In this document: in pieces, positions 1 through 10,584 of the stretch | Position numbering within the stretch: the stretch's first letter is position 1 | Layout: the number at the start of each line of letters is the position of its first letter | Assembly (NCBI GenBank): GCA_050330455.1 | Contig: JBHJNV010000034.1 | Span: 1 to 10,584, forward strand | DNA: 10,584 nt | Reading direction: 5' to 3' | Source of the DNA: Bernardetiaceae bacterium | GTDB lineage: Bacteria; Bacteroidota; Bacteroidia; Cytophagales; Bernardetiaceae | Position numbers and translations under genes: made by a program | The notes under the pieces: model-generated | Database searches by the model: none | Told to the model about the DNA's origin: nothing | Seen by the model: the letters and a program-made list of their open reading frames with translations, nothing else

Positions 1-821
1 TTGATTTTTTTAATTTGATATAAGGGTTCTGCGGGTTTAGTTTCTTGTATTTTTACCCGATATTCAGGCTCAAAAATAATCTGCCTTAAACCTTCAAAAG
101 TTGGATTGGCTTTTATCCAAGTGAAATTACCTATTTCTTCTATTTTATGAGCATCAGAAGTATGCACAACAGATTTAGGAACAGCATTTTCATACCTTGA
201 TTTATCAAGAAAATGATTTCTATCTTGGCTACGCCCAAAGAAGAAATTTGCTTTTTTATCAAATATCTCAGCAATGGCAACACTTCTACCTTCTTTATTA
301 TTTGAGCGAAAACCACCGTAACCGTTTGGACAACAAACTATAAGATAGTCCTCATATTCTATAAAATCTTTTTGAAGTTGGTTTAATAAAGTTTCGTCAT
401 TTACAACAGATGTACTGAAGTCGTTGTTGCTTGTCAAATTATTACAATATGTATCTGTTTTAGTTTGCAACCTACCTAAAAAACTATGAATTGCAGTATT
501 ATCAACTCTATCAGGATTGAAAATGATATGCAAGTTGATATATTCACCACTCTTGTTAGGCTGTGCTATACGAAATTCCAAATTTGGCAAAACTAAGATG
601 TGATGCTGATTAAGCTTTGCCTTCACTGTGTTCAATTCATTTTCTGCAAAACGGAAGTAATTAGTCAAACCAATAACCCTAACTCCACTATCGACAATTC
701 TCTGACCCCAATTATCCCATTCATTATTGAATTGGTTGTTCAAGTGAGTCATTGGGCTATGCACATGCAAATCCCACTTTGCCCATTCAGAGCCTTTTGG
801 ATATGGATTGTATCTTGCCAT
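1..821 (-). CDS. N-terminal part of a PHP (polymerase/histidinol-phosphatase) phosphoesterase domain protein. Start codon at 821..819; the 3' end lies beyond the window. Possibly the PHP module of a TrlF-like SMC/AAA ATPase.
   Basis: Reverse-strand translation from the ATG at 821..819 gives MARYNPYPKGSEWAKWDLHVHSPMTHLNNQFNNEW..., uninterrupted to position 1 (~273 codons). PHP hallmarks are present: the DLHVHS first motif, a conserved His in ...YINLHIIFNPD..., and the terminal HTSDAHKIEEIG (SDAH) motif. An in-frame stop lies 4 codons upstream of the ATG. The gene sits in a markedly AT-rich block unlike the rest of the window. It is missing from the supplied ORF track only because it is open at the window edge. 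Confidence 0.7.
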   Translation of the reverse strand, partial: MARYNPYPKGSEWAKWDLHVHSPMTHLNNQFNNEWDNWGQRIVDSGVRVIGLTNYFRFAENELNTVKAKLNQHHILVLPNLEFRIAQPNKSGEYINLHIIFNPDRVDNTAIHSFLGRLQTKTDTYCNNLTSNNDFSTSVVNDETLLNQLQKDFIEYEDYLIVCCPNGYGGFRSNNKEGRSVAIAEIFDKKANFFFGRSQDRNHFLDKSRYENAVPKSVVHTSDAHKIEEIGNFTWIKANPTFEGLRQIIFEPEYRVKIQETKPAEPLYQIKKI

Positions 822-932
822 AGTTTTTTTGATTTACCTCTCACCCCAAAGCAAACATACTAAAAAACTACAGCAAACCAAAAACGCCCCTGCCCTTGCA
901 CAAAACCGCTCCATATTGCTTATCTTTGGCTG

Positions 933-1589
933 ATGAAACACGTTTCGCTTACCATCCAGGCGCCCTATACCACGTATCATGCCCTGACCCCATCCACGCG
1001 GCATATCTGGATGGCCTGTCATGGCTATGGCCAACTGGCGCGGCATTTTGTCCGTCGCTTTGATGCCCTGGAGCCACAGGAAAACTTCGTGATTGCGCCC
1101 CAGGGCTTGTCCCGTTTTTATCTCGACGACAAGTACCAGCACGTGGGTGCCTCCTGGATCACGCGGGAGGAGCGGGAGATGAGCCTCCAAAATATGTACA
1201 CTTACCTCAACGCCGTCTTTGCGGCCGAGACCGCAGAAGCCCCTGATACAGCAGGTCTTACGCTCTTTGGCTTCTCGCAGGGAGCGGCAGCCGTGATCCG
1301 CTGGGCCCTGGCGCACCAGGTGCCGTTTGAGCGGTTGTTTTTTTGGGCGGGTGGCTTCCCCGAGGAGATCACACCGCAGGATGTCCGCTACCTGAACACG
1401 GACGAGATCGAAGTAAACTTCTTTGTGGGCAGCGAAGACCCATTTTATACCCCCGAGACGCTCGAGCGGCAGATGTCTCTGTTGCAACGGGTCTTTCCGC
1501 AGGTGCGCGTGATTCCTTTTGAGGGCGCGCATGAGGTCAAGCGGGAGGTATTGGTACAGGTAGCAACGCGCCCGATGCTCTCGCGTTAG
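933..1589 (+). CDS. alpha/beta-fold hydrolase (phospholipase/carboxylesterase or FSH1-like serine hydrolase family)
   Basis: 218-aa ORF with ATG at 933. GFSQG nucleophile-elbow motif (GxSxG). N-terminal ...IWMACHGYGQ... hydrolase-core motif. C-terminal FEGAHEV consistent with a catalytic His. The overlapping 232-aa minus-strand ORF (834..1532) is taken as a shadow. Confidence 0.7.
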   Translation: MKHVSLTIQAPYTTYHALTPSTRHIWMACHGYGQLARHFVRRFDALEPQENFVIAPQGLSRFYLDDKYQHVGASWITREEREMSLQNMYTYLNAVFAAETAEAPDTAGLTLFGFSQGAAAVIRWALAHQVPFERLFFWAGGFPEEITPQDVRYLNTDEIEVNFFVGSEDPFYTPETLERQMSLLQRVFPQVRVIPFEGAHEVKREVLVQVATRPMLSR

Positions 1590-2134
1590 GCTTTCATTTT
1601 TTGGGCAAAGCTAAGGAGTGCCTGCGCAAAGGTTTCGATTTTAGAAAGAAAATCAGGGTTGATTAAAGCCCCCGTTTCGTCGATCTGTTGGGTGATCTGC
1701 CCACAGAGGAGCATCTGGGGTTGGGGATAGGCCTGCACGGCCAGGATGAGCTGTTGGAGTGCCAGGGCTGCCCGCATACCGCCCATCGCCCCCGTCGATG
1801 CTGTGGCAACGCCGATGGGTTTTCCGCCTAGCTCGTCCTTGCCCATACGATCAACGAATCCCTTGAGGGCAGAAGAGAAGCTACCGTTGTACTCTGGGCT
1901 GACCAAAATCACGGCATCGGCATTTTTTAGGTCTGTGCTGGCGGCGAGCAGTTCCGCTGATGGGTCTTCGAGTAACCGCAGGCGTTCTACGAAAGGAGGT
2001 AGGTCAAGGGCGGCTAAGTCGATCAGTTGTACCGATGTATCGGCTTGGTTTTTCAGATACTGCTCGAGAGCCAGTGCTAGGCGGTGGCTGTTGCGACCTG
2101 GACGGGTGCTGCCAGAGATGATGGCGATTTTCAT
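1586..2134 (-). CDS. NADPH-dependent FMN reductase family oxidoreductase (flavodoxin-like fold; SsuE/YieF/ArsH-type)
   Basis: 182 aa starting MKIAIISGSTRPGRNSHRLA..., followed by ...AVILVSPEYNGSFSSALKGFVDR.... This is the typical FMN_red signature (the S-x-R motif and the SPEYNGS loop). ATG confirmed at 2134..2132. Its 3' end overlaps the hydrolase stop by 4 nt (convergent). Confidence 0.85.
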   Translation of the reverse strand: MKIAIISGSTRPGRNSHRLALALEQYLKNQADTSVQLIDLAALDLPPFVERLRLLEDPSAELLAASTDLKNADAVILVSPEYNGSFSSALKGFVDRMGKDELGGKPIGVATASTGAMGGMRAALALQQLILAVQAYPQPQMLLCGQITQQIDETGALINPDFLSKIETFAQALLSFAQKMKA

Positions 2135-2181
2135 TTGGAACGATAATTGTTTTTTTTGAGGGAAAAAAAATAAAAAGACCT

Positions 2182-2724
2182 ATGAAAAAGTTGTGTGTAT
2201 TTGCCATGGCCTTCTTTTGGATTTGTTTTCAAGGACTTGCCCAACAGGTGATCCCCCTGGAAGAGAACCAATCATCCAATCAGGATGGTTTGTCGGTGGG
2301 CTTTTCGGTAACCAATGAACGCACCCAAAGCGCGGGCAAAGAAGAATTTTCACGGTACGAAATTACGGTTTATCTGACTAACCAAAGCGGTTGCCCAAAA
2401 ATTGTCTTGACCGGAACGGGCTTTCAGGGAGCTTTTGGGGGGAGTATCATGGATCCATCCGTTTTTGGGGTCTTTGATTGCATCAATGCTACGGGTCGTC
2501 GCATGACCTCCAAAAGTGCCGAAGTACGCGCCAACCAGTTTATTGTCCCCTTTGAGCGGCAAGATACCAACGCCGAAGGAAAAACGATCACGCGCACCGA
2601 GCGTGTCCAGGCAGGTTTTATTCTCCGCGATGGCGAGACCATCTCAACGGACATCATCGTTTTGGTGCCGCTCGGAGAACGCCCGAGGATACAAGCCCGC
2701 GTAACGGCATTCTCTAACCTATAA
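2182..2724 (+). CDS. hypothetical secreted protein with N-terminal signal peptide
   Basis: 180 aa beginning MKKLCVFAMAFFWICFQGLAQQ (hydrophobic signal peptide, likely AQQ cleavage region). ATG at 2182. No recognisable catalytic motif. The remainder has uniform coding-like composition. Confidence 0.55.
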   Translation: MKKLCVFAMAFFWICFQGLAQQVIPLEENQSSNQDGLSVGFSVTNERTQSAGKEEFSRYEITVYLTNQSGCPKIVLTGTGFQGAFGGSIMDPSVFGVFDCINATGRRMTSKSAEVRANQFIVPFERQDTNAEGKTITRTERVQAGFILRDGETISTDIIVLVPLGERPRIQARVTAFSNL

Positions 2725-2725
2725 G

Positions 2726-3538
2726 TTATTCATCTTCAATGATCTGTACGACACGTATCAGCGAGGAAGCACTAAAAATACCCAAACCGCCATTGCTGAT
2801 GTTGGTGCGTGGATTGACGGGTGGCGGCGAAAACAAACCACCGTCGTTGCCCGCCAGGCTCAACAGATCGCTATAATAATCGAAGACATCTTCATTGATC
2901 GAGTACTGCTCCAAAGCCACCGTATCGCCCAGATCGAAGGCGTAGGGAAGTTCTAGGTTTTCGATGTTGTCCTGGACAAAGCGATCATCGGCGAGCAAAA
3001 TATCATCGAAGCCATCAAATAGGCTGTCATTGAGATAGACCCTCCAGCGATAGAAGTTCTTTTCGTTGGGGGGTTCTTTGGCAAAAAAGTACAGGTAATA
3101 CCCGTCGTCTCGGAACGGCCGGCCGGCTACATAGCGCACCGTCAGGGAGTCGATTTGGGTAACGGGTAGGAGTTGGGAGCTAGCCCTAAAAAATTCTTCC
3201 TGGACTTGTACCGAAAGGCTATACGTGCGCCCGACCTCTCCCTTGAAGGCGGGGTCTGTGGGGACGTAAAAGCCCGGGCTGTCCTCCCGAAAGATCATTT
3301 CGTTGCCCGTATCGTCGCTTATACTCACCTGGGCCCCCGAGATGCGGGGGGCTTGCGTAGGGTTGTAGAAATCAAGAGATTGGGTAAGGATGACCCAGGA
3401 ATAGCCCACCGTATCCACGACCTGCCCTTGTATGACAACGAGCGGTTCCTCCATGCTGCGGAGGGGTAAGTCGATCACTTGTTCGCAAGCGGTGAGCAGG
3501 GTACCGATCATCAAAATCCATACAAAATAAATGCGCAT
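2726..3538 (-). CDS. DUF4249 family lipoprotein (Bacteroidota)
   Basis: 270 aa. Lipoprotein signal MRIYFVWILMIGTLLTAC (lipobox Cys). C-terminal ...NPRTNISNGGLGIFSASS... matches the conserved DUF4249 C-terminal G-L-G-x-F-x-A motif as I remember it. ATG at 3538..3536. Confidence 0.7.
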   Translation of the reverse strand: MRIYFVWILMIGTLLTACEQVIDLPLRSMEEPLVVIQGQVVDTVGYSWVILTQSLDFYNPTQAPRISGAQVSISDDTGNEMIFREDSPGFYVPTDPAFKGEVGRTYSLSVQVQEEFFRASSQLLPVTQIDSLTVRYVAGRPFRDDGYYLYFFAKEPPNEKNFYRWRVYLNDSLFDGFDDILLADDRFVQDNIENLELPYAFDLGDTVALEQYSINEDVFDYYSDLLSLAGNDGGLFSPPPVNPRTNISNGGLGIFSASSLIRVVQIIEDE

Positions 3539-3564
3539 CTGTTTTCTTGTTTTGATTACTCTTC

Positions 3565-3581
3565 TTACAAAGAGGCTTTGT
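3565..3581. repeat. perfect inverted repeat TACAAAG-agg-CTTTGTA in the divergent intergenic region upstream of the SIR2-like gene; candidate operator
   Basis: Read directly: tacaaag (3565-3571), agg (3572-3574), ctttgta (3575-3581); a 7-bp stem with a 3-nt loop. It lies ~65 bp upstream of the ATG at 3646. Confidence 0.45.
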
Positions 3582-3645
3582 AGAGCAAAAAGTTGCTTGA
3601 TGGTTCGTATTTTTTTTTTCGCTATCTTGCCTCAAATTATCATGT

Positions 3646-4752
3646 ATGCCCGTTAAGCCACCCGATCAAGTAAACTGGGATTTTATTGTAGAAACGATCC
3701 GTACCGAGCGTTGTGTGTTGATGCTAGGCCCTGAGGTGGCGCGTAATGCCGAGGGCTTATCGCTTTATCAGTCGCTCCTGGAAAGCCTCGACCTAAGCAA
3801 CCAGGCAAAGGTACGTTATTACAACGACGATGAGTTTTTTTTCTTTCGCGACCCTTTGGCCAAAACGAGGGCCGTTTTTGATATTCAGCAGTTTTATGCT
3901 CGGCATAGTCCCTCGCCGCTTTTTGAGCAAATTCTCCAAATTCCTTTCCATCTGTGTATCTCTGTTTCGCCGGACTTGATGCTGCGTCAGTCTTTTGAGC
4001 AGTACAACTTGCCCCATCGCTTCGACTACTACCGCAAGTACGAGAACCCCCAAGCGATCGAACGTCCTACGCAAGATTATCCCCTGATCTACAATCTCTT
4101 TGGTGCTATTGAGGATGATGAATCGCTGATCTTTACCCACGAAGACCTCTTCGAGTTTTTGTTCGCCATCCTGGGGGATCGGAAGCTACCACGCGGGCTG
4201 GAGAGCCAACTCCAAAGTGCCAAAAACTTTATTTTTTTGGGCTTTAAGTTCGATAAATGGTACGTTAAGTTGCTCTTGCGTTTGTTGAGTTTGCATACGG
4301 GAAACTTCTTGCGCTACGCTTCTTATAGCCAGGATTCGGTCGAGACGCTCAACTTTTGTATGGATCACTTTCGGATTGATTTCATTGACCTAAGCATGGA
4401 TGATTTTGTTCAGACCCTCTACGACCGCTGTCAGGAACGCGGGATGCTCCGCCCACTCTCGACGAGCGATACCGTACAAACGCCCTGGGAAATCATCCAG
4501 GGATACATCCGAAAAGACGAAGTGAAGGCGGCTTTGCTCAAAATCGAAAGCTACCTAGCTCCCCTGCCCCAGGAGGAGGAACTCCTCACGACGCTCACCC
4601 TGCTGATGAGCCGCTACAACCGCCTCCAGCGAAAGATCACCAATGGGGTCATCGACGAGGACGAATCCGAACGCCAACTCAACCGCATCAAACAAGATGT
4701 CCTTAGCCTCGGGGAAGCCCTCCAGGAAATACTTGAAGAACAGCAGCTATAG
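3646..4752 (+). CDS. SIR2_2-like (ThsA/DSR-type sirtuin-fold, putative NAD+-consuming effector) protein with a C-terminal alpha-helical effector-associated-domain-like module
   Basis: 368 aa with ATG at 3646. Motif matches to the SIR2_2 family, with the first two motifs in canonical order:
- N-terminal ...WDFIVETIRTERCVLMLGPEVA... corresponds to '...vvlFlGAGvS'.
- ...PLIYNLFGAIEDDESLIFTHEDLFEFL... corresponds to 'iyKLHGs.....lvlTeeDY..f'.
- ...NFIFLGFKFDKWYVKLLLR... corresponds to 'lLFiGySl.D..i..ll'.
The C-terminal ~90 aa (PWEIIQGYIRKDEVKAALLKIESYL...LLMSRYNRLQRKITNGVIDEDESERQLNRIKQDVLSLGEALQE) is an all-helical module. Its 'SRYNRLQRK..G.I..DE...E.NRI' pattern recalls the effector-associated domains of conflict-system effectors. 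Confidence 0.65.
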   Translation: MPVKPPDQVNWDFIVETIRTERCVLMLGPEVARNAEGLSLYQSLLESLDLSNQAKVRYYNDDEFFFFRDPLAKTRAVFDIQQFYARHSPSPLFEQILQIPFHLCISVSPDLMLRQSFEQYNLPHRFDYYRKYENPQAIERPTQDYPLIYNLFGAIEDDESLIFTHEDLFEFLFAILGDRKLPRGLESQLQSAKNFIFLGFKFDKWYVKLLLRLLSLHTGNFLRYASYSQDSVETLNFCMDHFRIDFIDLSMDDFVQTLYDRCQERGMLRPLSTSDTVQTPWEIIQGYIRKDEVKAALLKIESYLAPLPQEEELLTTLTLLMSRYNRLQRKITNGVIDEDESERQLNRIKQDVLSLGEALQEILEEQQL

Positions 4753-4757
4753 CCACC

Positions 4758-5132
4758 ATGGAAAGCACCTTGCATTTGGCAGATAACCTGCGTTGGCTGC
4801 GCCAGGAACACGACCTAACCCAGGATCAGCTGGCCCAGATACTCGACCTCAAGCGCAACACCATCACGGCTTATGAGAGCCAAAGAAGCCTACCGCCCCT
4901 GCCCATCTTGATTCGTTTGGCGGGATACTTTCAGGTGAGCATCGACCATCTCTTATTCTGGGACTACAAAGCCGATGCCCCCATAGATGATACACCTGCC
5001 GCTTCCGAACGCGAAACCTTGCGCCAGCACTACGAAGCCTTACAGATCGCGTACCTACGTCAGGAGATTCACTGCCGCCAGGAGATCATACGCCTCAAAG
5101 AAGAACTCCAACAACTCAAGGGCGATCTTTGA
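4758..5132 (+). CDS. XRE/Cro-C1-family helix-turn-helix transcriptional regulator with a C-terminal coiled-coil
   Basis: 124 aa. The ATG at 4758 lies 5 nt after the SIR2-like stop (TAG 4750-4752), so the two genes are probably co-transcribed. LRWLRQEHDLTQDQLAQILDLKRNTITAYESQRSLPPLPILIRLAGYFQVSIDHLLF is a textbook HTH_XRE. The C-terminus ETLRQHYEALQIAYLRQEIHCRQEIIRLKEELQQLKGDL has heptad-like coiled-coil character. Confidence 0.75.
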   Translation: MESTLHLADNLRWLRQEHDLTQDQLAQILDLKRNTITAYESQRSLPPLPILIRLAGYFQVSIDHLLFWDYKADAPIDDTPAASERETLRQHYEALQIAYLRQEIHCRQEIIRLKEELQQLKGDL

Positions 5133-5328
5133 GCGGGCAGGTATTGACCCCAATCAGGGTGTATAGCCCACAAAAGCGAACCGTCGCCGTGGCGGCCAGG
5201 GCAATGCCCCCAACCAAGACAACCCAGCCTAGGGTTCCGGCAACGACTCCACTGGCGTACAAGACCACCAAGATAAGGGCTACGGCGTAGCGGATCAGTC
5301 GGTCTATTTTTCCTACGTTTGTTTGCAT
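5116..5328 (-). CDS. DUF2892 (YgaP-like) small membrane protein
   Basis: 70 aa, MQTNVGKIDRLIRYAVALILVVL...TVRFCGLYTLIGVNTCP. It has two hydrophobic helices plus the conserved C-P/G-L-Y...G..TC motif of the DUF2892 family. ATG at 5328..5326. Its 3' end overlaps the HTH gene's 3' end by 17 nt (convergent). Confidence 0.65.
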   Translation of the reverse strand: MQTNVGKIDRLIRYAVALILVVLYASGVVAGTLGWVVLVGGIALAATATVRFCGLYTLIGVNTCPLKDRP

Positions 5329-5419
5329 GGCATGATTGTTTCAGAAATGGTTTAAGCGAAAGTACAAAAAAAATATGACTTACCCCAAAGACAGTCTGTA
5401 GGCCGCTTTGGCGGTTTGG

Positions 5420-6556
5420 TTATTCCACCATGAGCAGCGGCTGGGGCGTAAAGCAAAGCACAAAGACTACCAGAGCCAGCACACCCAACGCCTTCCTGAT
5501 CGGGCTAAGCGGAACAGACTCCTCTGCCCCCGGATGAGAGATACCCACCACACGCCCCAGCAAAAAACCAAACAACAGCCAGGCATGGTAGCCCTCAATG
5601 CCTGGAAACAAAGCCGCAATACCCCATTGGCACAAAACCAGCACCAGAGCCACCACCAAAGCCGCCTGCCAGTGCCGAAACTCACGCGCCCATACCCAGT
5701 ACAGATAGCCCACATACAAGATAAAGCCCGTCGGAGATTCCCATACATCGGATACCGAAAACAGCCCCAATCCCGCATAGCCCAAAAAGACAAAGAAAAA
5801 CAGCCGTGCAATACGCTGATGCCAGCGGTAGCCCACCAGCCCGTAAAGGACATGCCCGCCGTCGAGTTGGCCGATGGGCAGTAGGTTGAGGGCCGTAAAA
5901 AACAAAGCCAGATAACCGGCCAGCAAATACGGGTAGTGCATGATCTCGAAATCATTGGGGAGCAATGCCGGATCTGCGACCCAATATTTGAACGCCTCAA
6001 AAAGCAGATTTGTGCCCAGCCGAACGCCACCCTCGGGGGCATCCTGATACACGTGATCGGCATAAGCCAGACCATACTGGGCATACTCGGGATGAATCTC
6101 GAAGATATGCTCGGCGGGCGGCAAAAAAGTAAATCCGTACCACAACACACCCAATGCTACCACAAAGCCCGCTAGTGGCCCCGCAATCCCGACATCAAAA
6201 TACACCTTCCGAGACCATATCCGGCTCCTGATACGGATAAACGCGCCCATTGTCCCGATGGAAGGCGCACCCGCAAAAAGTGGTAAAAAGCCCAACCAAA
6301 GCGGAATGTAGTACGGCAAGCTGACCCGCAGCCGGTGGTATTGCGCCACAAAGTAATGCCCAAACTCATGTACGGTCAGGATGCCCAAAAAAGGGATCGA
6401 GTAATGTAGCCCATCCCAAAAGTGCGCCCACGTCAGGGCAGGTGAAACCCAAAAAAAAGGCCGCCCCCATATCCACTCTGCCCCCGCAAATGTCGTAGCA
6501 ATGAAGGTCAGGAGGAAGAGCAGGGGATGCAAAAGCAAGCGAAGCAAGGGGCGCAT
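5420..6556 (-). CDS. site-2 protease family (peptidase M50) intramembrane zinc metalloprotease
   Basis: HEFGHYFVA (HExxH) and ...NLLPIGQLDGGHVL... (the LDGG motif of M50), in a multi-pass hydrophobic protein. The ORF track begins at a GTG (6574..6572). The first ATG is at 6556..6554 (MRPLLRLLL...). I list the ATG; the GTG start is possible. Confidence 0.8.
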   Translation of the reverse strand: MRPLLRLLLHPLLFLLTFIATTFAGAEWIWGRPFFWVSPALTWAHFWDGLHYSIPFLGILTVHEFGHYFVAQYHRLRVSLPYYIPLWLGFLPLFAGAPSIGTMGAFIRIRSRIWSRKVYFDVGIAGPLAGFVVALGVLWYGFTFLPPAEHIFEIHPEYAQYGLAYADHVYQDAPEGGVRLGTNLLFEAFKYWVADPALLPNDFEIMHYPYLLAGYLALFFTALNLLPIGQLDGGHVLYGLVGYRWHQRIARLFFFVFLGYAGLGLFSVSDVWESPTGFILYVGYLYWVWAREFRHWQAALVVALVLVLCQWGIAALFPGIEGYHAWLLFGFLLGRVVGISHPGAEESVPLSPIRKALGVLALVVFVLCFTPQPLLMVE

Positions 6557-6570
6557 AGGGGGCGATGTTT

Positions 6571-7227
6571 TCACTTGGTCAGGATGTACATCTCCCGCTC
6601 GAGTCCCGTAGCAGAGCTATAAGGGCGTTGCTCGAGGGAGGAGAAGCCGGCCGCCTCAGACATCCGAGCCATATCTTCGGGATAGGGCATATAGCCCTCC
6701 AGGGTTCCCCACTCGGTTTCGACGCGGATGTATTTTCGGTCTATCTTTTTGCCGACGTATTTGATTTGATCGCGGGGTGCGTCGATGTATGCCTTGCCTT
6801 GTGGGTGGAGTTGGGAGTAGATGCGATGGAGGCAAAGCATTTGATCCTCGGGAGTTTGTTCGAGTATGCCTGACCAGAGCCACAAGACAGCATCGACCGC
6901 TGTGGGCAGTTGTAGGTCTCGGATGTCTTGTTGGATCGGGCTTACGGGGGGGTGAGTAGTTTGTTCTTCGATCAGTTGCAATAGATGGGGGATACGATCG
7001 ACGGCAAATATTTCTCCGGCGTAGCCCATCTCGAGCAGCCCCAGGACACAACGCCCATAGCCTGCCCCTAGCTCGGCGATGCTTTGGGTGTCCACCAAAT
7101 CAGGGAAGATCACTTGCAGGTCAGGGAGGGTATCAAAGCCCGTCAGTTGTGCCAGTTCATGGAACTTTTGGAGTTCCATTTTGCGGTAAAAGTCAAGGTT
7201 ATCTGCTCGGATGGTGGAATGCGTCAT
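6571..7227 (-). CDS. class I SAM-dependent methyltransferase
   Basis: ...IAELGAGYGRCVLGLLEMGYAGEIFAVDRIP... is motif I (E/DxGxGxG) followed by an acidic residue at the end of beta-2. The track start is a TTG at 7251..7249. ATG at 7227..7225 (MTHSTIRADNL...) is preferred. Stop TGA at 6573..6571. Confidence 0.7.
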   Translation of the reverse strand: MTHSTIRADNLDFYRKMELQKFHELAQLTGFDTLPDLQVIFPDLVDTQSIAELGAGYGRCVLGLLEMGYAGEIFAVDRIPHLLQLIEEQTTHPPVSPIQQDIRDLQLPTAVDAVLWLWSGILEQTPEDQMLCLHRIYSQLHPQGKAYIDAPRDQIKYVGKKIDRKYIRVETEWGTLEGYMPYPEDMARMSEAAGFSSLEQRPYSSATGLEREMYILTK

Positions 7228-7237
7228 GAAAGCAAAA

Positions 7238-7912
7238 TTACAAATTTTCAAAGAGGCGGCGTTTGAGCTGCTGAAATTCTTCTTCGGAGATTGTCCCTGC
7301 CTGGCGGAGTTCCATCAGTTCGTTGAGGCGATCCAGGGGGTCTTTGGCGGCGGTGGGTTGTACTTCTACCTCTACTTCGTCGGCCTCAGAAAACTCATCC
7401 TGGGCAGCCTTGCCCCGCTTGACAAACTCGTCCTGCATCTGTCGGGCAAACTGCTTGCCCTTCTCAAACTCCTGCTGATAAAAGCTCTTGACGGCTTCGG
7501 CATCGAAGTCCTCCAAAGTGCCGCCTTTCTCAAAATGCGTTACAAAAACACGCCCCGTCGCGTAGGTAGAAGCCCCCGAAAGGATCGCCATACTGACCCC
7601 GCCCACGACCGCACCCACGCCCGGAATCATCTTGATTGCCTGTGATCCCAACTTAGGCAACGCACTGCCAGCCAGTGTATTGAGCCAGGATTCTAGGTTG
7701 CGACGACGAAAATCAACGCCATAGATTTTACACAACTCATGTACCATATCTATTTGGATCGCCGTAACGGCTACCATATCGGCCAGTGGGATCGGAATCA
7801 AGCCGGCCCCCAACGACCAACCTACCGATCGCTCCACGATACGCTCTGCCCGCTCGTTATCGGTATCCATGCCCATTTTTTCCTTGAACTTATAGAAGAG
7901 ATAATCTAACAT
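7238..7912 (-). CDS. DUF697/EcsC-like domain protein with C-terminal SHOCT domain
   Basis: 224 aa with ATG at 7912..7910. The central ...GAGLIPIPLADMVAVTAIQIDMVHELCKIYGVDF... resembles the DUF697/EcsC conserved core. The C-terminus DPLDRLNELMELRQAGTISEEEFQQLKRRLF is a clear SHOCT (short C-terminal domain) motif. The acidic linker EADEVEVEV precedes it. Confidence 0.5.
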   Translation of the reverse strand: MLDYLFYKFKEKMGMDTDNERAERIVERSVGWSLGAGLIPIPLADMVAVTAIQIDMVHELCKIYGVDFRRRNLESWLNTLAGSALPKLGSQAIKMIPGVGAVVGGVSMAILSGASTYATGRVFVTHFEKGGTLEDFDAEAVKSFYQQEFEKGKQFARQMQDEFVKRGKAAQDEFSEADEVEVEVQPTAAKDPLDRLNELMELRQAGTISEEEFQQLKRRLFENL

Positions 7913-7932
7913 TGTCTTTATACAGATGATTC

Positions 7933-8050
7933 ATAATGGTAACGGATCAAGGCAAATAATGGATTAGAAAAAAGATATAAAACCCGAAAAAGTTTTTTGA
8001 CTGCCGTATTTTTTGTATCTTTCCCAATCCCTTGACCGTAATCCATTGTA
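7933..8050. promoter_or_regulatory. AT-rich divergent promoter region containing three copies of an A(T/C)AATGG motif (two direct, one inverted)
   Basis: ataatggt at 7933-7940. ataatggatta at 7956-7966. The inverted copy taatccattgt is at 8039-8049 (aatggatta 7958-7966 vs taatccatt 8039-8047). Located between the divergent starts at 7912 (-) and 8075 (+). Confidence 0.35.
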
Positions 8051-8074
8051 TTCACCGCCTAGCCCTTTGCGTTT

Positions 8075-8716
8075 ATGTCCGCCAAAAAAGATACCCAGCC
8101 TGTGCGTCGTCGGCCGCTCAATGCCCTCCAACACATCGAAAAACAACATCCCTATGTGGTGATGCTCTACGTGGGCATGATTGGCATTTCAGCCATGTTT
8201 TTGTTTTTGTTATTTTCATTTCGTTTTTATGAAATTCAGGAGGAGGTCTTGGCGCGGTTTCGCTTTCCGACGGGCTTTGTCATCAGCACGTGTTTGCTCC
8301 TGATGAGCAGCCTAACGATTCATCAAGCGAAGTTGTCGTTTTATGAAGATGATTTTTTGCAGATGCGGCGTTATCTCCTGATTACTTTGGGCTTGGGTAT
8401 TGGTTTTTCGGTTTGTCAAGTGGTGGGTTGGTATGAGTTGCAGGCCGCTGGGCTGGCTTGGGCAAGCCAAAACTCTACAACGTATCTCTATTTGGTCTCG
8501 GGGCTACACGTCTTGCACCTCCTGGGAGGCTTGGCTTTTGTGGGGGTGCAGGCATATAGCATCCATCAAAAGTGCCACGATCCGGTAAAAGTGTTGATTG
8601 CCGTAACCAACCCTCACGAAAAAATGAAGCTAACCTTGATGACGCTCTACTGGCACTTCATGGATGGGCTTTGGGTGGTACTGTTTTTGTATTTCGTGAT
8701 GGCGTTTTTGTTTTAA
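8075..8716 (+). CDS. cytochrome c oxidase subunit III family membrane protein (stand-alone short form)
   Basis: 213 aa, polytopic. C-terminal ...LMTLYWHFMDGLWVVLFLYFVMAF... matches the hallmark YWHFVD..W..LF segment of heme-copper oxidase subunit III. ATG at 8075. No subunit I/II genes are in the window. Confidence 0.6.
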   Translation: MSAKKDTQPVRRRPLNALQHIEKQHPYVVMLYVGMIGISAMFLFLLFSFRFYEIQEEVLARFRFPTGFVISTCLLLMSSLTIHQAKLSFYEDDFLQMRRYLLITLGLGIGFSVCQVVGWYELQAAGLAWASQNSTTYLYLVSGLHVLHLLGGLAFVGVQAYSIHQKCHDPVKVLIAVTNPHEKMKLTLMTLYWHFMDGLWVVLFLYFVMAFLF

Positions 8717-8726
8717 TGGCTCCTTG

Positions 8727-10580
8727 ATGCGGATACTTTTTTGGCTTAGTCTGATTATTGCTTACCCCTTGATGGGTCAGGAGGCTTGTTTTGATGTCAA
8801 TATCACGACTGGATGCGCTCCTTTGACGGTGCAAGTCATTGATTGCTCGGGGGCAGCGGCGGGCAATATCCTCTACGACTACGGCAACGGCAACAAGGTT
8901 ACCCAAACGACATTTACTTACACCCAGGCCGGCACATACCCCATCACGCAGTACGTAGGTTCGGGGGCGGGCGGGGATTCGCTACGCAAAGAAAACCTCA
9001 TCGTCGTCAGGGAACCTCAACCGATTGCCTTTGATCTGCTGCCTTGCCCAGACCAGGGGCTGCTCTTGATCCTGACCGACACCACCCGAGATACCTACAC
9101 CATCGACCTCGGCGATGGCAACCGAGCCACCCTCAACGCCACCGATACCCTCATCCACTACTATCCCGATACCCAGCTACGCAACATCCGAGTACAGGGT
9201 ACGCTCCCCAACTGCCCCTCCACCGATACCGTTTTTGCCCCGCAACCCAACCCAGCCACCATCACCATCGACCGCCTCGAAGTCCTGGATGACCAACGCC
9301 TACAACTGACCCTCTCCCAAACCCCAGCCGTAGCAGACTACCAACTCGAGCAACAAACCGACAACGGGGCTTTTGTTGTCCTGCAAGACCTCCCCATCGG
9401 AACAGAGACCCTGATCCTGGATGGACTAGACCTCCCCAACCGCAGCTACAGCTACCGCATCAGTCAAACCAACCTTTGCACCGGTGGCCGTACCAGCGAT
9501 CAGCCCATACGTACCACCTACGCCCGCCTCACCGTCGGGAACGGCAACCTCGGTCTCCAATGGACGGCCCAGCCCCTGGATAGCACCCAGTTTGAGGGTT
9601 ACCAAATCACCAAAGACGGCAATGACTTCATCACGCTCCGCGACCCCCGCACCACAACCGCCGTGGATGGCGACGTGCGTTGCCGCAGGCGATACTGTTA
9701 TCGCATCACGGCCACGCTCACCGGCGGACGGCAGTCGGTTTCGCAGGAGGTCTGTGCCGATGCCCAACTCACCCGCAGCCTACGCCCACCGGACTCCCTC
9801 CGCGTAACGGTCAATCGCGCCAACCAAATCGAACTTACCTGGGGTAGCCTCCTCGATTCACTCTTTAACCGGATGCGCTTCACCCGCCGCGATTCCGTCG
9901 GTATCGACACCCTCACCGGCAACGACAAAGCGGCATACATCGACTTTGGGGCCAACCCCAACGCACAAGTCTTTTGCTATCAGGTAGGCTATCAGGATTT
10001 TTGTGGCAACCAGTCCACTTTTAGTGCTGCCGTATGTCCGATCCGCTTGCAGGTAACGACGGATTCGCTGCGTTTTGATCTTCGGTGGTCTGCCTATCAG
10101 GGGTCTTTTGAACCGCTGACCTACTACCTGCTCAAGTTGGACGAAGAGAGAAATGTACTTGATTCGATTCCGGTGAGTAGTTTTCGCTTTGGTGAGCAGA
10201 TCGCCGATCAGAGCCGGCAGGTGTTGCGCTTTCAAGTCGTGGCCGTGGGCAGCCAAACCGGCTTTGCGTATGCCTCCAACAGCTTGTTGGTGCGTCTGCC
10301 CTCCAGGATGCTCATCGCCGATGCCTTTACGCCCAACGGCGACGGACTCAACGACACCTTCGGCGGCGTAGGACGCTTCATCGAGACCTACGAACTACGC
10401 ATCTTTAATGCCCTCGGCAATCCCATTTTTTACAGCGACAACCTAGAAACGCGCTGGGATGGCACCCGCAACAACGGAGAAGCCTTGCCAGCAGGTGTTT
10501 ATTTTTTTCAGTTGCGGGCCACCGATCAGATCGGGCGCACCTACAACATCCGCAACACCGTAACTTTGATTCGGCGATAA
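8727..10580 (+). CDS. T9SS cargo protein with gliding-motility-associated C-terminal domain (CHU_C / T9SS type B sorting domain). N-terminal signal peptide and PKD/Fn3-like beta repeats.
   Basis: The C-terminal ~90 aa LIADAFTPNGDGLNDTFGGVGRFIETYELRIFNALGNPIFYSDNLETRWDGTRNNGEALPAGVYFFQLRATDQIGRTYNIRNTVTLIRR is the canonical CHU_C sorting domain: FTPNGDGxND..., the WDG and GxY motifs, and ...VTLIR at the end. The track starts at a TTG (8724). The ATG at 8727 (MRILFWLSLIIAYPLMGQ, signal peptide) is preferred. Stop TAA at 10578-10580. Confidence 0.85.
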   Translation: MRILFWLSLIIAYPLMGQEACFDVNITTGCAPLTVQVIDCSGAAAGNILYDYGNGNKVTQTTFTYTQAGTYPITQYVGSGAGGDSLRKENLIVVREPQPIAFDLLPCPDQGLLLILTDTTRDTYTIDLGDGNRATLNATDTLIHYYPDTQLRNIRVQGTLPNCPSTDTVFAPQPNPATITIDRLEVLDDQRLQLTLSQTPAVADYQLEQQTDNGAFVVLQDLPIGTETLILDGLDLPNRSYSYRISQTNLCTGGRTSDQPIRTTYARLTVGNGNLGLQWTAQPLDSTQFEGYQITKDGNDFITLRDPRTTTAVDGDVRCRRRYCYRITATLTGGRQSVSQEVCADAQLTRSLRPPDSLRVTVNRANQIELTWGSLLDSLFNRMRFTRRDSVGIDTLTGNDKAAYIDFGANPNAQVFCYQVGYQDFCGNQSTFSAAVCPIRLQVTTDSLRFDLRWSAYQGSFEPLTYYLLKLDEERNVLDSIPVSSFRFGEQIADQSRQVLRFQVVAVGSQTGFAYASNSLLVRLPSRMLIADAFTPNGDGLNDTFGGVGRFIETYELRIFNALGNPIFYSDNLETRWDGTRNNGEALPAGVYFFQLRATDQIGRTYNIRNTVTLIRR

Positions 10581-10584
10581 AAAA

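Follow-up and report, generated by a model that had tools for sequence, protein, structure and literature searches.

The closest described relatives of the locus analyzed here are the NTP-dependent conflict systems coupled through effector-associated domains (EADs), in which EAD genes can be encoded away from the core system (PMC7159879, PMC8195603). We analyzed a 10,584-nucleotide stretch of DNA from a Bernardetiaceae bacterium (assembly GCA_050330455.1, contig JBHJNV010000034.1, positions 1 to 10,584; hereafter the window) in which an open reading frame (ORF1) encoding a SIR2-like domain and EAD11 is followed by a small gene (ORF2) for an XRE-family helix-turn-helix (HTH) regulator. The family to which ORF1 belongs shares with the EAD-coupled systems a small, terminal, all-helical and non-enzymatic EAD, the same type of EAD fused to TIR or CHAT on a second protein in related loci, an nSTAND1 STAND nucleoside triphosphatase (NTPase) with repeat sensors, a distribution in Bacteroidota and the possibility that EAD genes lie away from the core. 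It differs in that the EAD is carried by a constant SIR2-like subunit rather than by nSTAND1, and the window differs further in having neither an NTPase nor a second EAD11 gene. In the parts of the supplements of Kaur et al. that could be searched, EAD11 is found solely on LRR+AP-GTPase+COR(+TIR) proteins and the combination 'SIR2+EAD11' is absent. Our analysis indicates, with a probability of roughly 0.7, that ORF1 is an orphaned, intact SIR2-like/EAD11 subunit of a Bacteroidota conflict system resembling nucleotide-binding leucine-rich repeat (NLR) proteins and built on nSTAND1, and that ORF2 is an incidental neighbour. ORF1 joins the known EAD-coupled STAND conflict systems, here as an orphan.

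Other SIR2-containing systems also differ. In the Avs5/SIR2-STAND proteins (EfAvs5, PaAvs5) SIR2, STAND and sensor regions form a single polypeptide, whereas in this family they are divided between two genes, and EAD11, TIR or EAD7 lies where the parts would meet. Avs5 also belongs to another STAND clade than nSTAND1, and no PADLOC Avs model matched ORF1 or the partner NTPases of its relatives. Where Avs5 proteins have an HG or NG motif (PMC12931631), most members of the present family have Phe, Cys or Leu, and in the window copy there is additionally no STAND partner and Ser takes the place of the essential Asn. In Thoeris, ThsA combines SIR2 with SLOG, whereas ORF1 has no SLOG/STALD region and its locus no ThsB or TIR gene; the catalytic Asn and His of ThsA are Ser108 and Phe152 in ORF1, and the PADLOC ThsA match reached an E-value of only 0.038. 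The Kongming SIR2 NAD+ hydrolase (NADase) KomC works with KomA and KomB, which are absent here, and ORF1 does not preserve its GAG, TTNYD-Asn or HG motif. The original prediction had not assigned the two genes to any named defence system, and a PADLOC run likewise identified no named system.

The two genes are real and adjacent as originally described, and profile matches bore out the domains proposed for them (SIR2_2, an effector-associated domain, and an XRE HTH with a helical tail). The ORF1 protein is identical to the NCBI entry 'MAG: SIR2 family protein [Bernardetiaceae bacterium]' (MAG, metagenome-assembled genome). It matches Pfam SIR2_2 (PF13289) above the gathering score and has the Rossmann-type SIR2 fold, and its C-terminal module scores 49.5 bits against Pfam EAD11 (cut-off 26). 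The proposed connection with the NTP-dependent conflict systems that Kaur et al. describe as coupled through EADs is likewise supported. The C-terminal helices of the predicted model span residues 280-289, 293-304, 311-332 and 338-367, and a profile search of the whole 368-aa protein found no NTPase domain. ORF2 matches HTH_3 with 49 bits (cut-off 23) and the transcriptional regulator family phrog_8 at 6e-15. Features of both genes and of the related loci discussed below are listed in Table 1.

Table 1. Features of the ORF1-ORF2 locus and of related loci (window positions unless a locus handle, L, is given)
Feature	Location	Strand	Remark
Upstream intergenic region, 107 nt	3539..3645	.	contains a T10 run
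ORF1, 368 aa, SIR2-like domain and EAD11	3646..4752	+	intact ORF
SIR2-like Rossmann domain, aa 1-275	3646..4470	+	
LGPE, aa 27-30 of ORF1			at GAGxS position
SVSPD, aa 106-110 of ORF1			at TTNYD position
Ser108-Pro109-Asp110 codons	3967..3975	+	Ser108 at position of essential TNYD Asn
IYNLFG, aa 148-153 of ORF1			at xxKxHG position
Asn150-Leu151-Phe152-Gly153 codons	4093..4104	+	Phe152 at HG/NG catalytic position
FLGFKFDKWY, aa 197-206 of ORF1			family motif of SIR2-like domain
EAD11, aa 284-357	4495..4716	+	four-helix C-terminal module, Pfam PF19964
5-nt spacer, ORF1 stop to ORF2 start	4753..4757	.	TAG CCACC ATG
ORF2, 124 aa, XRE-family regulator	4758..5132	+	
HTH_3 domain of ORF2, aa 11-65	4788..4952	+	
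C-terminal long helix of ORF2, aa 82-123	5001..5126	+	conserved LRxEIxxRxEIxRLK
ORF2-like family, about 121-126 aa	L090 637-1595, L091 1181-2139, L092 378-2792		
EAD11-TIR_2 third genes	L019, L020, L060, L065, L068		
CHAT-EAD11 third gene	L052		
EAD11-TM-SH3 third gene	L061		TM, transmembrane
EAD11 plus uncharacterised region, third genes	L005, L034, L050, L062		
GajA-type OLD-family ATPase/TOPRIM nuclease gene (Gabija)	1-821 (L001 3-1833)	-	PADLOC GajA E 1e-142
NTase_sub_bind and Polbeta nucleotidyltransferase pair, then HNH_2 endonuclease gene	L001 11605-13287		1-2.7 kb past right edge of window

To determine the usual partner of the SIR2-like gene we assembled 82 distinct homologues, the surroundings of several of them and 80 loci from species-representative genomes, and scanned the called ORFs with hidden Markov models built for the SIR2-like domain, EAD11 and nSTAND1 as well as with the ORF2 sequence. 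Sufficient flanking DNA to judge the partner was available for 77 of the 82 proteins. In 72 of these 77, an nSTAND1 STAND NTPase lies directly downstream on the same strand, and of these pairs 26 overlap, most often by 4 nt, whereas 27 others are separated by 0-30 nt. One further homologue has nSTAND1 directly upstream, giving an adjacent NTPase in 73 of 77. The closest homologue of ORF1 (P0002, 74% identity) is followed 82 nt downstream by nSTAND1, and the same arrangement is found in Rapidithrix and other loci. The partner NTPases start straight at the P-loop domain, without an N-terminal EAD, and the longer ones bear WD40 propellers or TPR arrays, an NLR-like architecture. What varies is the C-terminus of the SIR2-like protein: most members end in EAD11, a subgroup of about 465 aa in TIR_2 and a few in EAD7, and some have no such module; the SIR2-like domain and its nSTAND1 neighbour are constant across the family. 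The earlier statement that ORF1 has none of the usual partner domains, STAND among them, therefore holds only in cis at this locus, since the family as a whole represents a SIR2-like/STAND system whose parts are split. No PADLOC (2023) model matched the nSTAND1 partners or the operon, and we found no description of this operon in the literature searched.

Solo SIR2-like genes account for the remaining four of 77, namely the window genome and loci L036, L043 and L051; locus L010, where a convergent HEPN gene lies 3' of the SIR2-like gene, is probably a fifth. Copy number also varies. Several genomes (KLAP56, J06554_4 and Saprospiraceae 0686931a) have two to three SIR2-like/nSTAND1 loci, one contig (L032) carries two pairs in tandem at 4154-7738 and 9410-13821, their SIR2-like proteins being of the TIR-bearing length, and the Cytophagales genome PH2015_01D has both a solo copy (L051) and a complete one (L077).

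In contrast to nSTAND1, ORF2 is not a recurrent neighbour of SIR2-like genes. No ORF2-like protein was found in the other 88 loci, and an ORF2-like neighbour is absent from all 81 other distinct homologues. When 5.8 billion proteins were searched through a word index, ORF2 itself was the sole match; a viral scan returned no match, and a metagenome scan returned a single HTH-only match, in whose vicinity SIR2, nSTAND1 and EAD11 were all absent; locus L089 likewise showed no pairing of ORF2-like and SIR2-like genes. Besides generic HTH matches, which exceeded 10,000 in number, an exhaustive HMMER search gave two relatives over the full length, P0109 (43% identity) and P0201 (41%), which have the C-terminal LRxEIxxRxEIxRLK helix in common with ORF2. 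These relatives occur on three contigs in the contexts ABC-2 permease/HTH/DUF6992/RsfS/FtsH/MutY/SSB and HTH/GyrB/methyltransferase, and no SIR2-like gene adjoins them on any of the three. They are packed 4-8 nt from unrelated neighbours, as tightly as ORF1 and ORF2, and one of the contigs shares its sample of origin with L004, which holds the closest SIR2-like homologue, paired with nSTAND1. SIR2-like genes are thus routinely found without the HTH gene, the outcome that according to the original prediction would argue for a chance adjacency, and ORF2 relatives without SIR2. The proposal that ORF1 and ORF2 form a functional module was not supported, with 0 of 81 homologues having an ORF2-like neighbour against 72 of 77 with nSTAND1 downstream. 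ORF2 is most likely an unrelated dimeric XRE-type regulator of a separate small family and a chance neighbour of ORF1.

Reverse-order type II toxin-antitoxin (TA) pairs with XRE antitoxins, of the HigBA or MqsRA type, offer another way to read the two genes. Like them, the locus has a larger gene with a small XRE HTH gene close behind it in the same orientation, and ORF1 and ORF2 could be a lineage-specific effector or toxin and its downstream repressor or antitoxin, in the 'toxin first' order of higBA, with the HTH protein replacing the NTPase in function. Both genes are intact, share a strand, are 5 nt apart and have no terminator between them; many defence and TA loci have an XRE-type protein as their regulator or antitoxin, and ORF2 weakly resembles CapH, C-proteins, HipB, MqsA and PezA, all below the curated PADLOC and NCBIfam cut-offs. 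Defence- or TA-like genes (GajA, NTase_sub_bind/Polbeta, HNH) also lie nearby. The pairing is, however, confined to this genome and shows no conserved co-occurrence, and ORF2 relatives sit beside housekeeping genes, not toxins, at equally tight spacing. ORF1 cannot be placed in any known toxin family whose active site is intact and is without the residues that canonical NADase toxicity requires, the C-terminal helix of ORF2 has no similarity to EAD11, and no operator-like palindrome lies upstream of ORF1. We consider such a toxin-antitoxin arrangement decidedly improbable.

Two direct connections between ORF2 and the SIR2-like system were considered and rejected. ORF2 is not the truncated N-terminus of a lost nSTAND1, as there is no BLASTP similarity and nSTAND1 proteins begin at the NTPase, and its C-terminal helix is not a cryptic EAD11 (about 1 bit in hmmsearch, 0.3% probability in hhalign). 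For ORF2, AlphaFold prediction from the single sequence gave a low-confidence model (pLDDT, predicted local distance difference test, 59), which was used for secondary structure alone. The ORF2-like XRE genes form a small, uncharacterised Bacteroidota regulator family; in two contigs the ORF2-like gene and a DUF6992 gene have 4 nt in common, and in the third the ORF2-like gene lies 7 nt upstream of gyrB. In the window, the 3' end of ORF2 overlaps a convergent gene for a YgaP-like membrane protein (5116-5328, - strand) by 17 nt (5116-5132), and an 8-nt perfect inverted repeat (5094-5101 and 5126-5133) brackets the ORF2 stop codon.

The partner expected from the census is missing at the window locus. 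Neither an nSTAND1 gene nor a second EAD11 gene is present in the window or in loci L001 and L009, which extend coverage to 4.6 kb upstream, where the contig ends, and to 10 kb downstream, and tblastn with four partner NTPases revealed no nSTAND1 remnant in the window. A candidate nSTAND1 pseudogene was rejected, since the best tblastn match (E 0.023) falls on an unrelated gene. An EAD11 profile search of the 5.8-billion-protein database gave two short matches that passed the E-value at that database size, and no partner in the same genome. A route to orphaning is suggested by loci L011 (11315-13184) and L064 (11150-12736), where the downstream nSTAND1 is broken into two and four consecutive ORFs, respectively. 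These are likely pseudogenes or assembly frameshifts and resemble intermediates of partner loss, which makes such a route plausible. The solo copies do not form one clade; they are interspersed among nSTAND1-linked relatives, and the nearest relative of the window copy is itself nSTAND1-linked, which argues that separation from the NTPase has occurred repeatedly. L036 and L043 are an intact solo pair, 65% identical to each other, suggesting that solo copies can persist. In L043 (11145-13971) a TPR-adenylate/guanylate cyclase gene comes next after the SIR2-like/EAD11 gene, and beyond it lie a 143-aa ORF without a Pfam match and a gene for an OmpR-type response regulator; these neighbours could be an alternative signalling partner, or a coincidence.

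These observations also bear on whether ORF1 still works. It might be a non-functional relic, recently orphaned by loss or relocation of its nSTAND1 partner, in which decay is still pending. The conserved partner is gone, the NTPase is decaying in the related loci L011 and L064, and the nearby gajA gene is probably frameshifted, suggesting that defence genes decay in this region. In addition, no promoter was recognised upstream of ORF1: crude scans, for a phylum whose promoters are modelled poorly, detected no sigma-70-like promoter, no exact Bacteroidota TAnnTTTG and no operator-like palindrome in the 107-nt intergenic region. ORF1 is, however, full length and keeps all nine of nine family-invariant residues, its GC content at third codon positions (GC3) is fully ameliorated to the host, and intact solo copies such as L036 and L043 exist elsewhere. 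Comparison with the closest homologue gave a dN (nonsynonymous divergence) of 0.18 with saturated dS (synonymous divergence), values averaged over both lineages, and dispersed EAD genes are expected under the EAD principle. Taken together, this makes a relic unlikely.

The label of NAD+-depleting effector given to ORF1 is doubtful. We placed the SIR2 motifs in three independent alignments, one to the Pfam model, one by phmmer to ThsA (7uxt) and one of the family profile to KomC (8zsf/8zsi), which agree in register: GAGxS corresponds to LGPE in ORF1, T-T-N-Y-D to S-V-S-P-D and K-x-H-G to N-L-F-G. At the TNYD Asn expected of SIR2 NAD+ hydrolases (ThsA, DSR, Avs5, KomC, FAM118) ORF1 has Ser108, and the 82 family members have Asn in 39, Ser in 34 and Thr in 7, so that the essential residue is missing in about half of them. 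At the HG/NG motif of these hydrolases ORF1 has Phe152-Gly153, and at the His/Asn position the family has Phe in 56, Cys in 15, Leu in 5 and other residues in 6, never His or Asn. The counterparts of the TNYD Asn are N112 in ThsA, N141 in EfAvs5, N110 in PaAvs5 and N163 in FAM118B. Mutagenesis has shown that N141A abolishes defence by EfAvs5 (PMC11897194), that N110A, D112A and E202A abolish PaAvs5 immunity (PMC12931631), and that H206A or N163A abolishes the activity of FAM118B (PMC12700824). Ser108 and Phe152 thus occupy both of the positions found essential by mutagenesis in ThsA, Avs5 and FAM118B, which is why sequence comparison makes an NAD+-depleting role doubtful. The SIR2-like domain of ORF1 more probably serves as an adaptor or binds a ligand than works as a canonical NADase, a role that fits better than that of an effector because the SIR2-like domain is constant and TIR or CHAT is variable.

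The distribution of third genes fits the proposed recruitment through EAD11. Additional EAD11-fusion genes are present in 13 of the 63 loci whose SIR2-like protein has EAD11, as opposed to 0 of 26 where it does not (both counts include duplicate assemblies), and these 13 loci match the 'EAD principle' of Kaur et al. Three of the third genes (L005 8996-9859, L034 9264-9914 and L050 4802-5395) form a subgroup with a common, unannotated C-terminal region that has no Pfam match and ends in the motif YNS(I/V)AEW(C/F)(G/A)LPQVP(K/R)L(F/L)LKK, possibly a new module with an effector or membrane-targeting role.

By analogy with Avs, NLR and EAD systems, the nSTAND1 protein of a complete locus would sense a trigger or invader through its WD40 or TPR repeats and then oligomerize, and the SIR2-like subunit, made from the translationally coupled upstream gene, would join this assembly. 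Homotypic EAD11-EAD11 contacts would recruit EAD11-TIR or EAD11-CHAT effectors, the effector TIR being fused directly in other loci. At the window locus the SIR2-like/EAD11 subunit stands alone and would act solely in trans with partners encoded elsewhere, unless decay is under way; if ORF1 is working, it must act in trans because the NTPase and a second EAD11 gene are absent from the window. The 5-nt distance between ORF1 and ORF2 would then reflect incidental gene packing.

Several findings weigh against ORF1 being an orphaned subunit of this kind. The same-strand 5-nt spacing fits co-transcription of ORF1 and ORF2 and at least regulatory coupling; co-transcription is possible and would not be evidence of shared function. 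EAD11 was not detectable in the nSTAND1 partners by profile search, and the EAD11 of third genes is only moderately close to that of the cognate SIR2-like protein (ranks 1-45 of 55, median about 4). Moreover, the SIR2 NADases of Avs5 can dispense with the canonical His, using NG for HG, so that the lack of His by itself does not mark a domain as catalytically dead. An active site of another kind could arise from the invariant Tyr149-Asn150, whose Asn lies two residues upstream of Phe152. ORF1 might accordingly be an autonomous NAD+-consuming enzyme with a non-canonical site, in which Tyr149-Asn150 would stand in for the HG/NG residue and neither NTPase nor HTH protein would be needed. Besides the plasticity of the His position, the strong SIR2 fold match to active NADases would suit such an enzyme, as would the conservation of Asp110, Tyr149, Ser160 and Asp167, which like the invariant Asn150 are invariant or nearly so in the family and suggest a conserved pocket. 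ORF1 also lacks the TNYD Asn, however, and Ala at this residue abolishes function in EfAvs5, PaAvs5 and FAM118B; an unregulated NADase would be expected to be toxic, and the family is nearly always coupled to a STAND switch. Overall, an autonomous NADase is highly improbable.

A more specific version of the adaptor role can be put forward tentatively from the same residue and domain comparisons. The SIR2-like domain may be the constant, non-catalytic adaptor or ligand sensor of nSTAND1, delivering TIR or CHAT through EAD11, EAD7 or direct fusion, and the window copy may be a free-standing adaptor for a distant NTPase/EAD11 network, possibly expressed together with the XRE gene.

Returning to the orphaned-subunit reading, the SIR2 and HTH pair should not be catalogued as a new two-gene defence system, because ORF1 is then an orphaned NLR-like STAND subunit beside an unrelated regulator. 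The lead lies at the level of the family, a widespread Bacteroidota operon of SIR2-like and nSTAND1 genes, sometimes with an EAD11-TIR or EAD11-CHAT gene. The SIR2-like domain is its constant component and presents a third active-site state, [F/C/L]G, next to HG and NG. Whether this domain is an enzyme or an adaptor matters for understanding effector recruitment, by way of death-domain-like adaptors, in split NLR-like systems of bacteria.

The lower-GC patch noted earlier is real insofar as overall GC dips over the SIR2 part of ORF1, but GC3 is equal to that of the neighbouring genes. A foreign-DNA signature for ORF1 and ORF2 was therefore rejected, and there is no sign of recent acquisition because GC3 is the same as in the neighbours. 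At the left end of the window, the gajA gene is in two parts, an N-terminal ORF of 90 aa (window 549-821) and a remaining part of 532 aa that continues past the end of the contig. Its GC content is 0.32, as opposed to about 0.52 elsewhere, and the contigs of both MAG assemblies end there; the split gene is probably frameshifted or foreign. Beyond the right edge, the NTase_sub_bind/Polbeta pair has a HEPN/MNT-like TA architecture. The defence- and TA-like genes of the wider region are interspersed with housekeeping genes.

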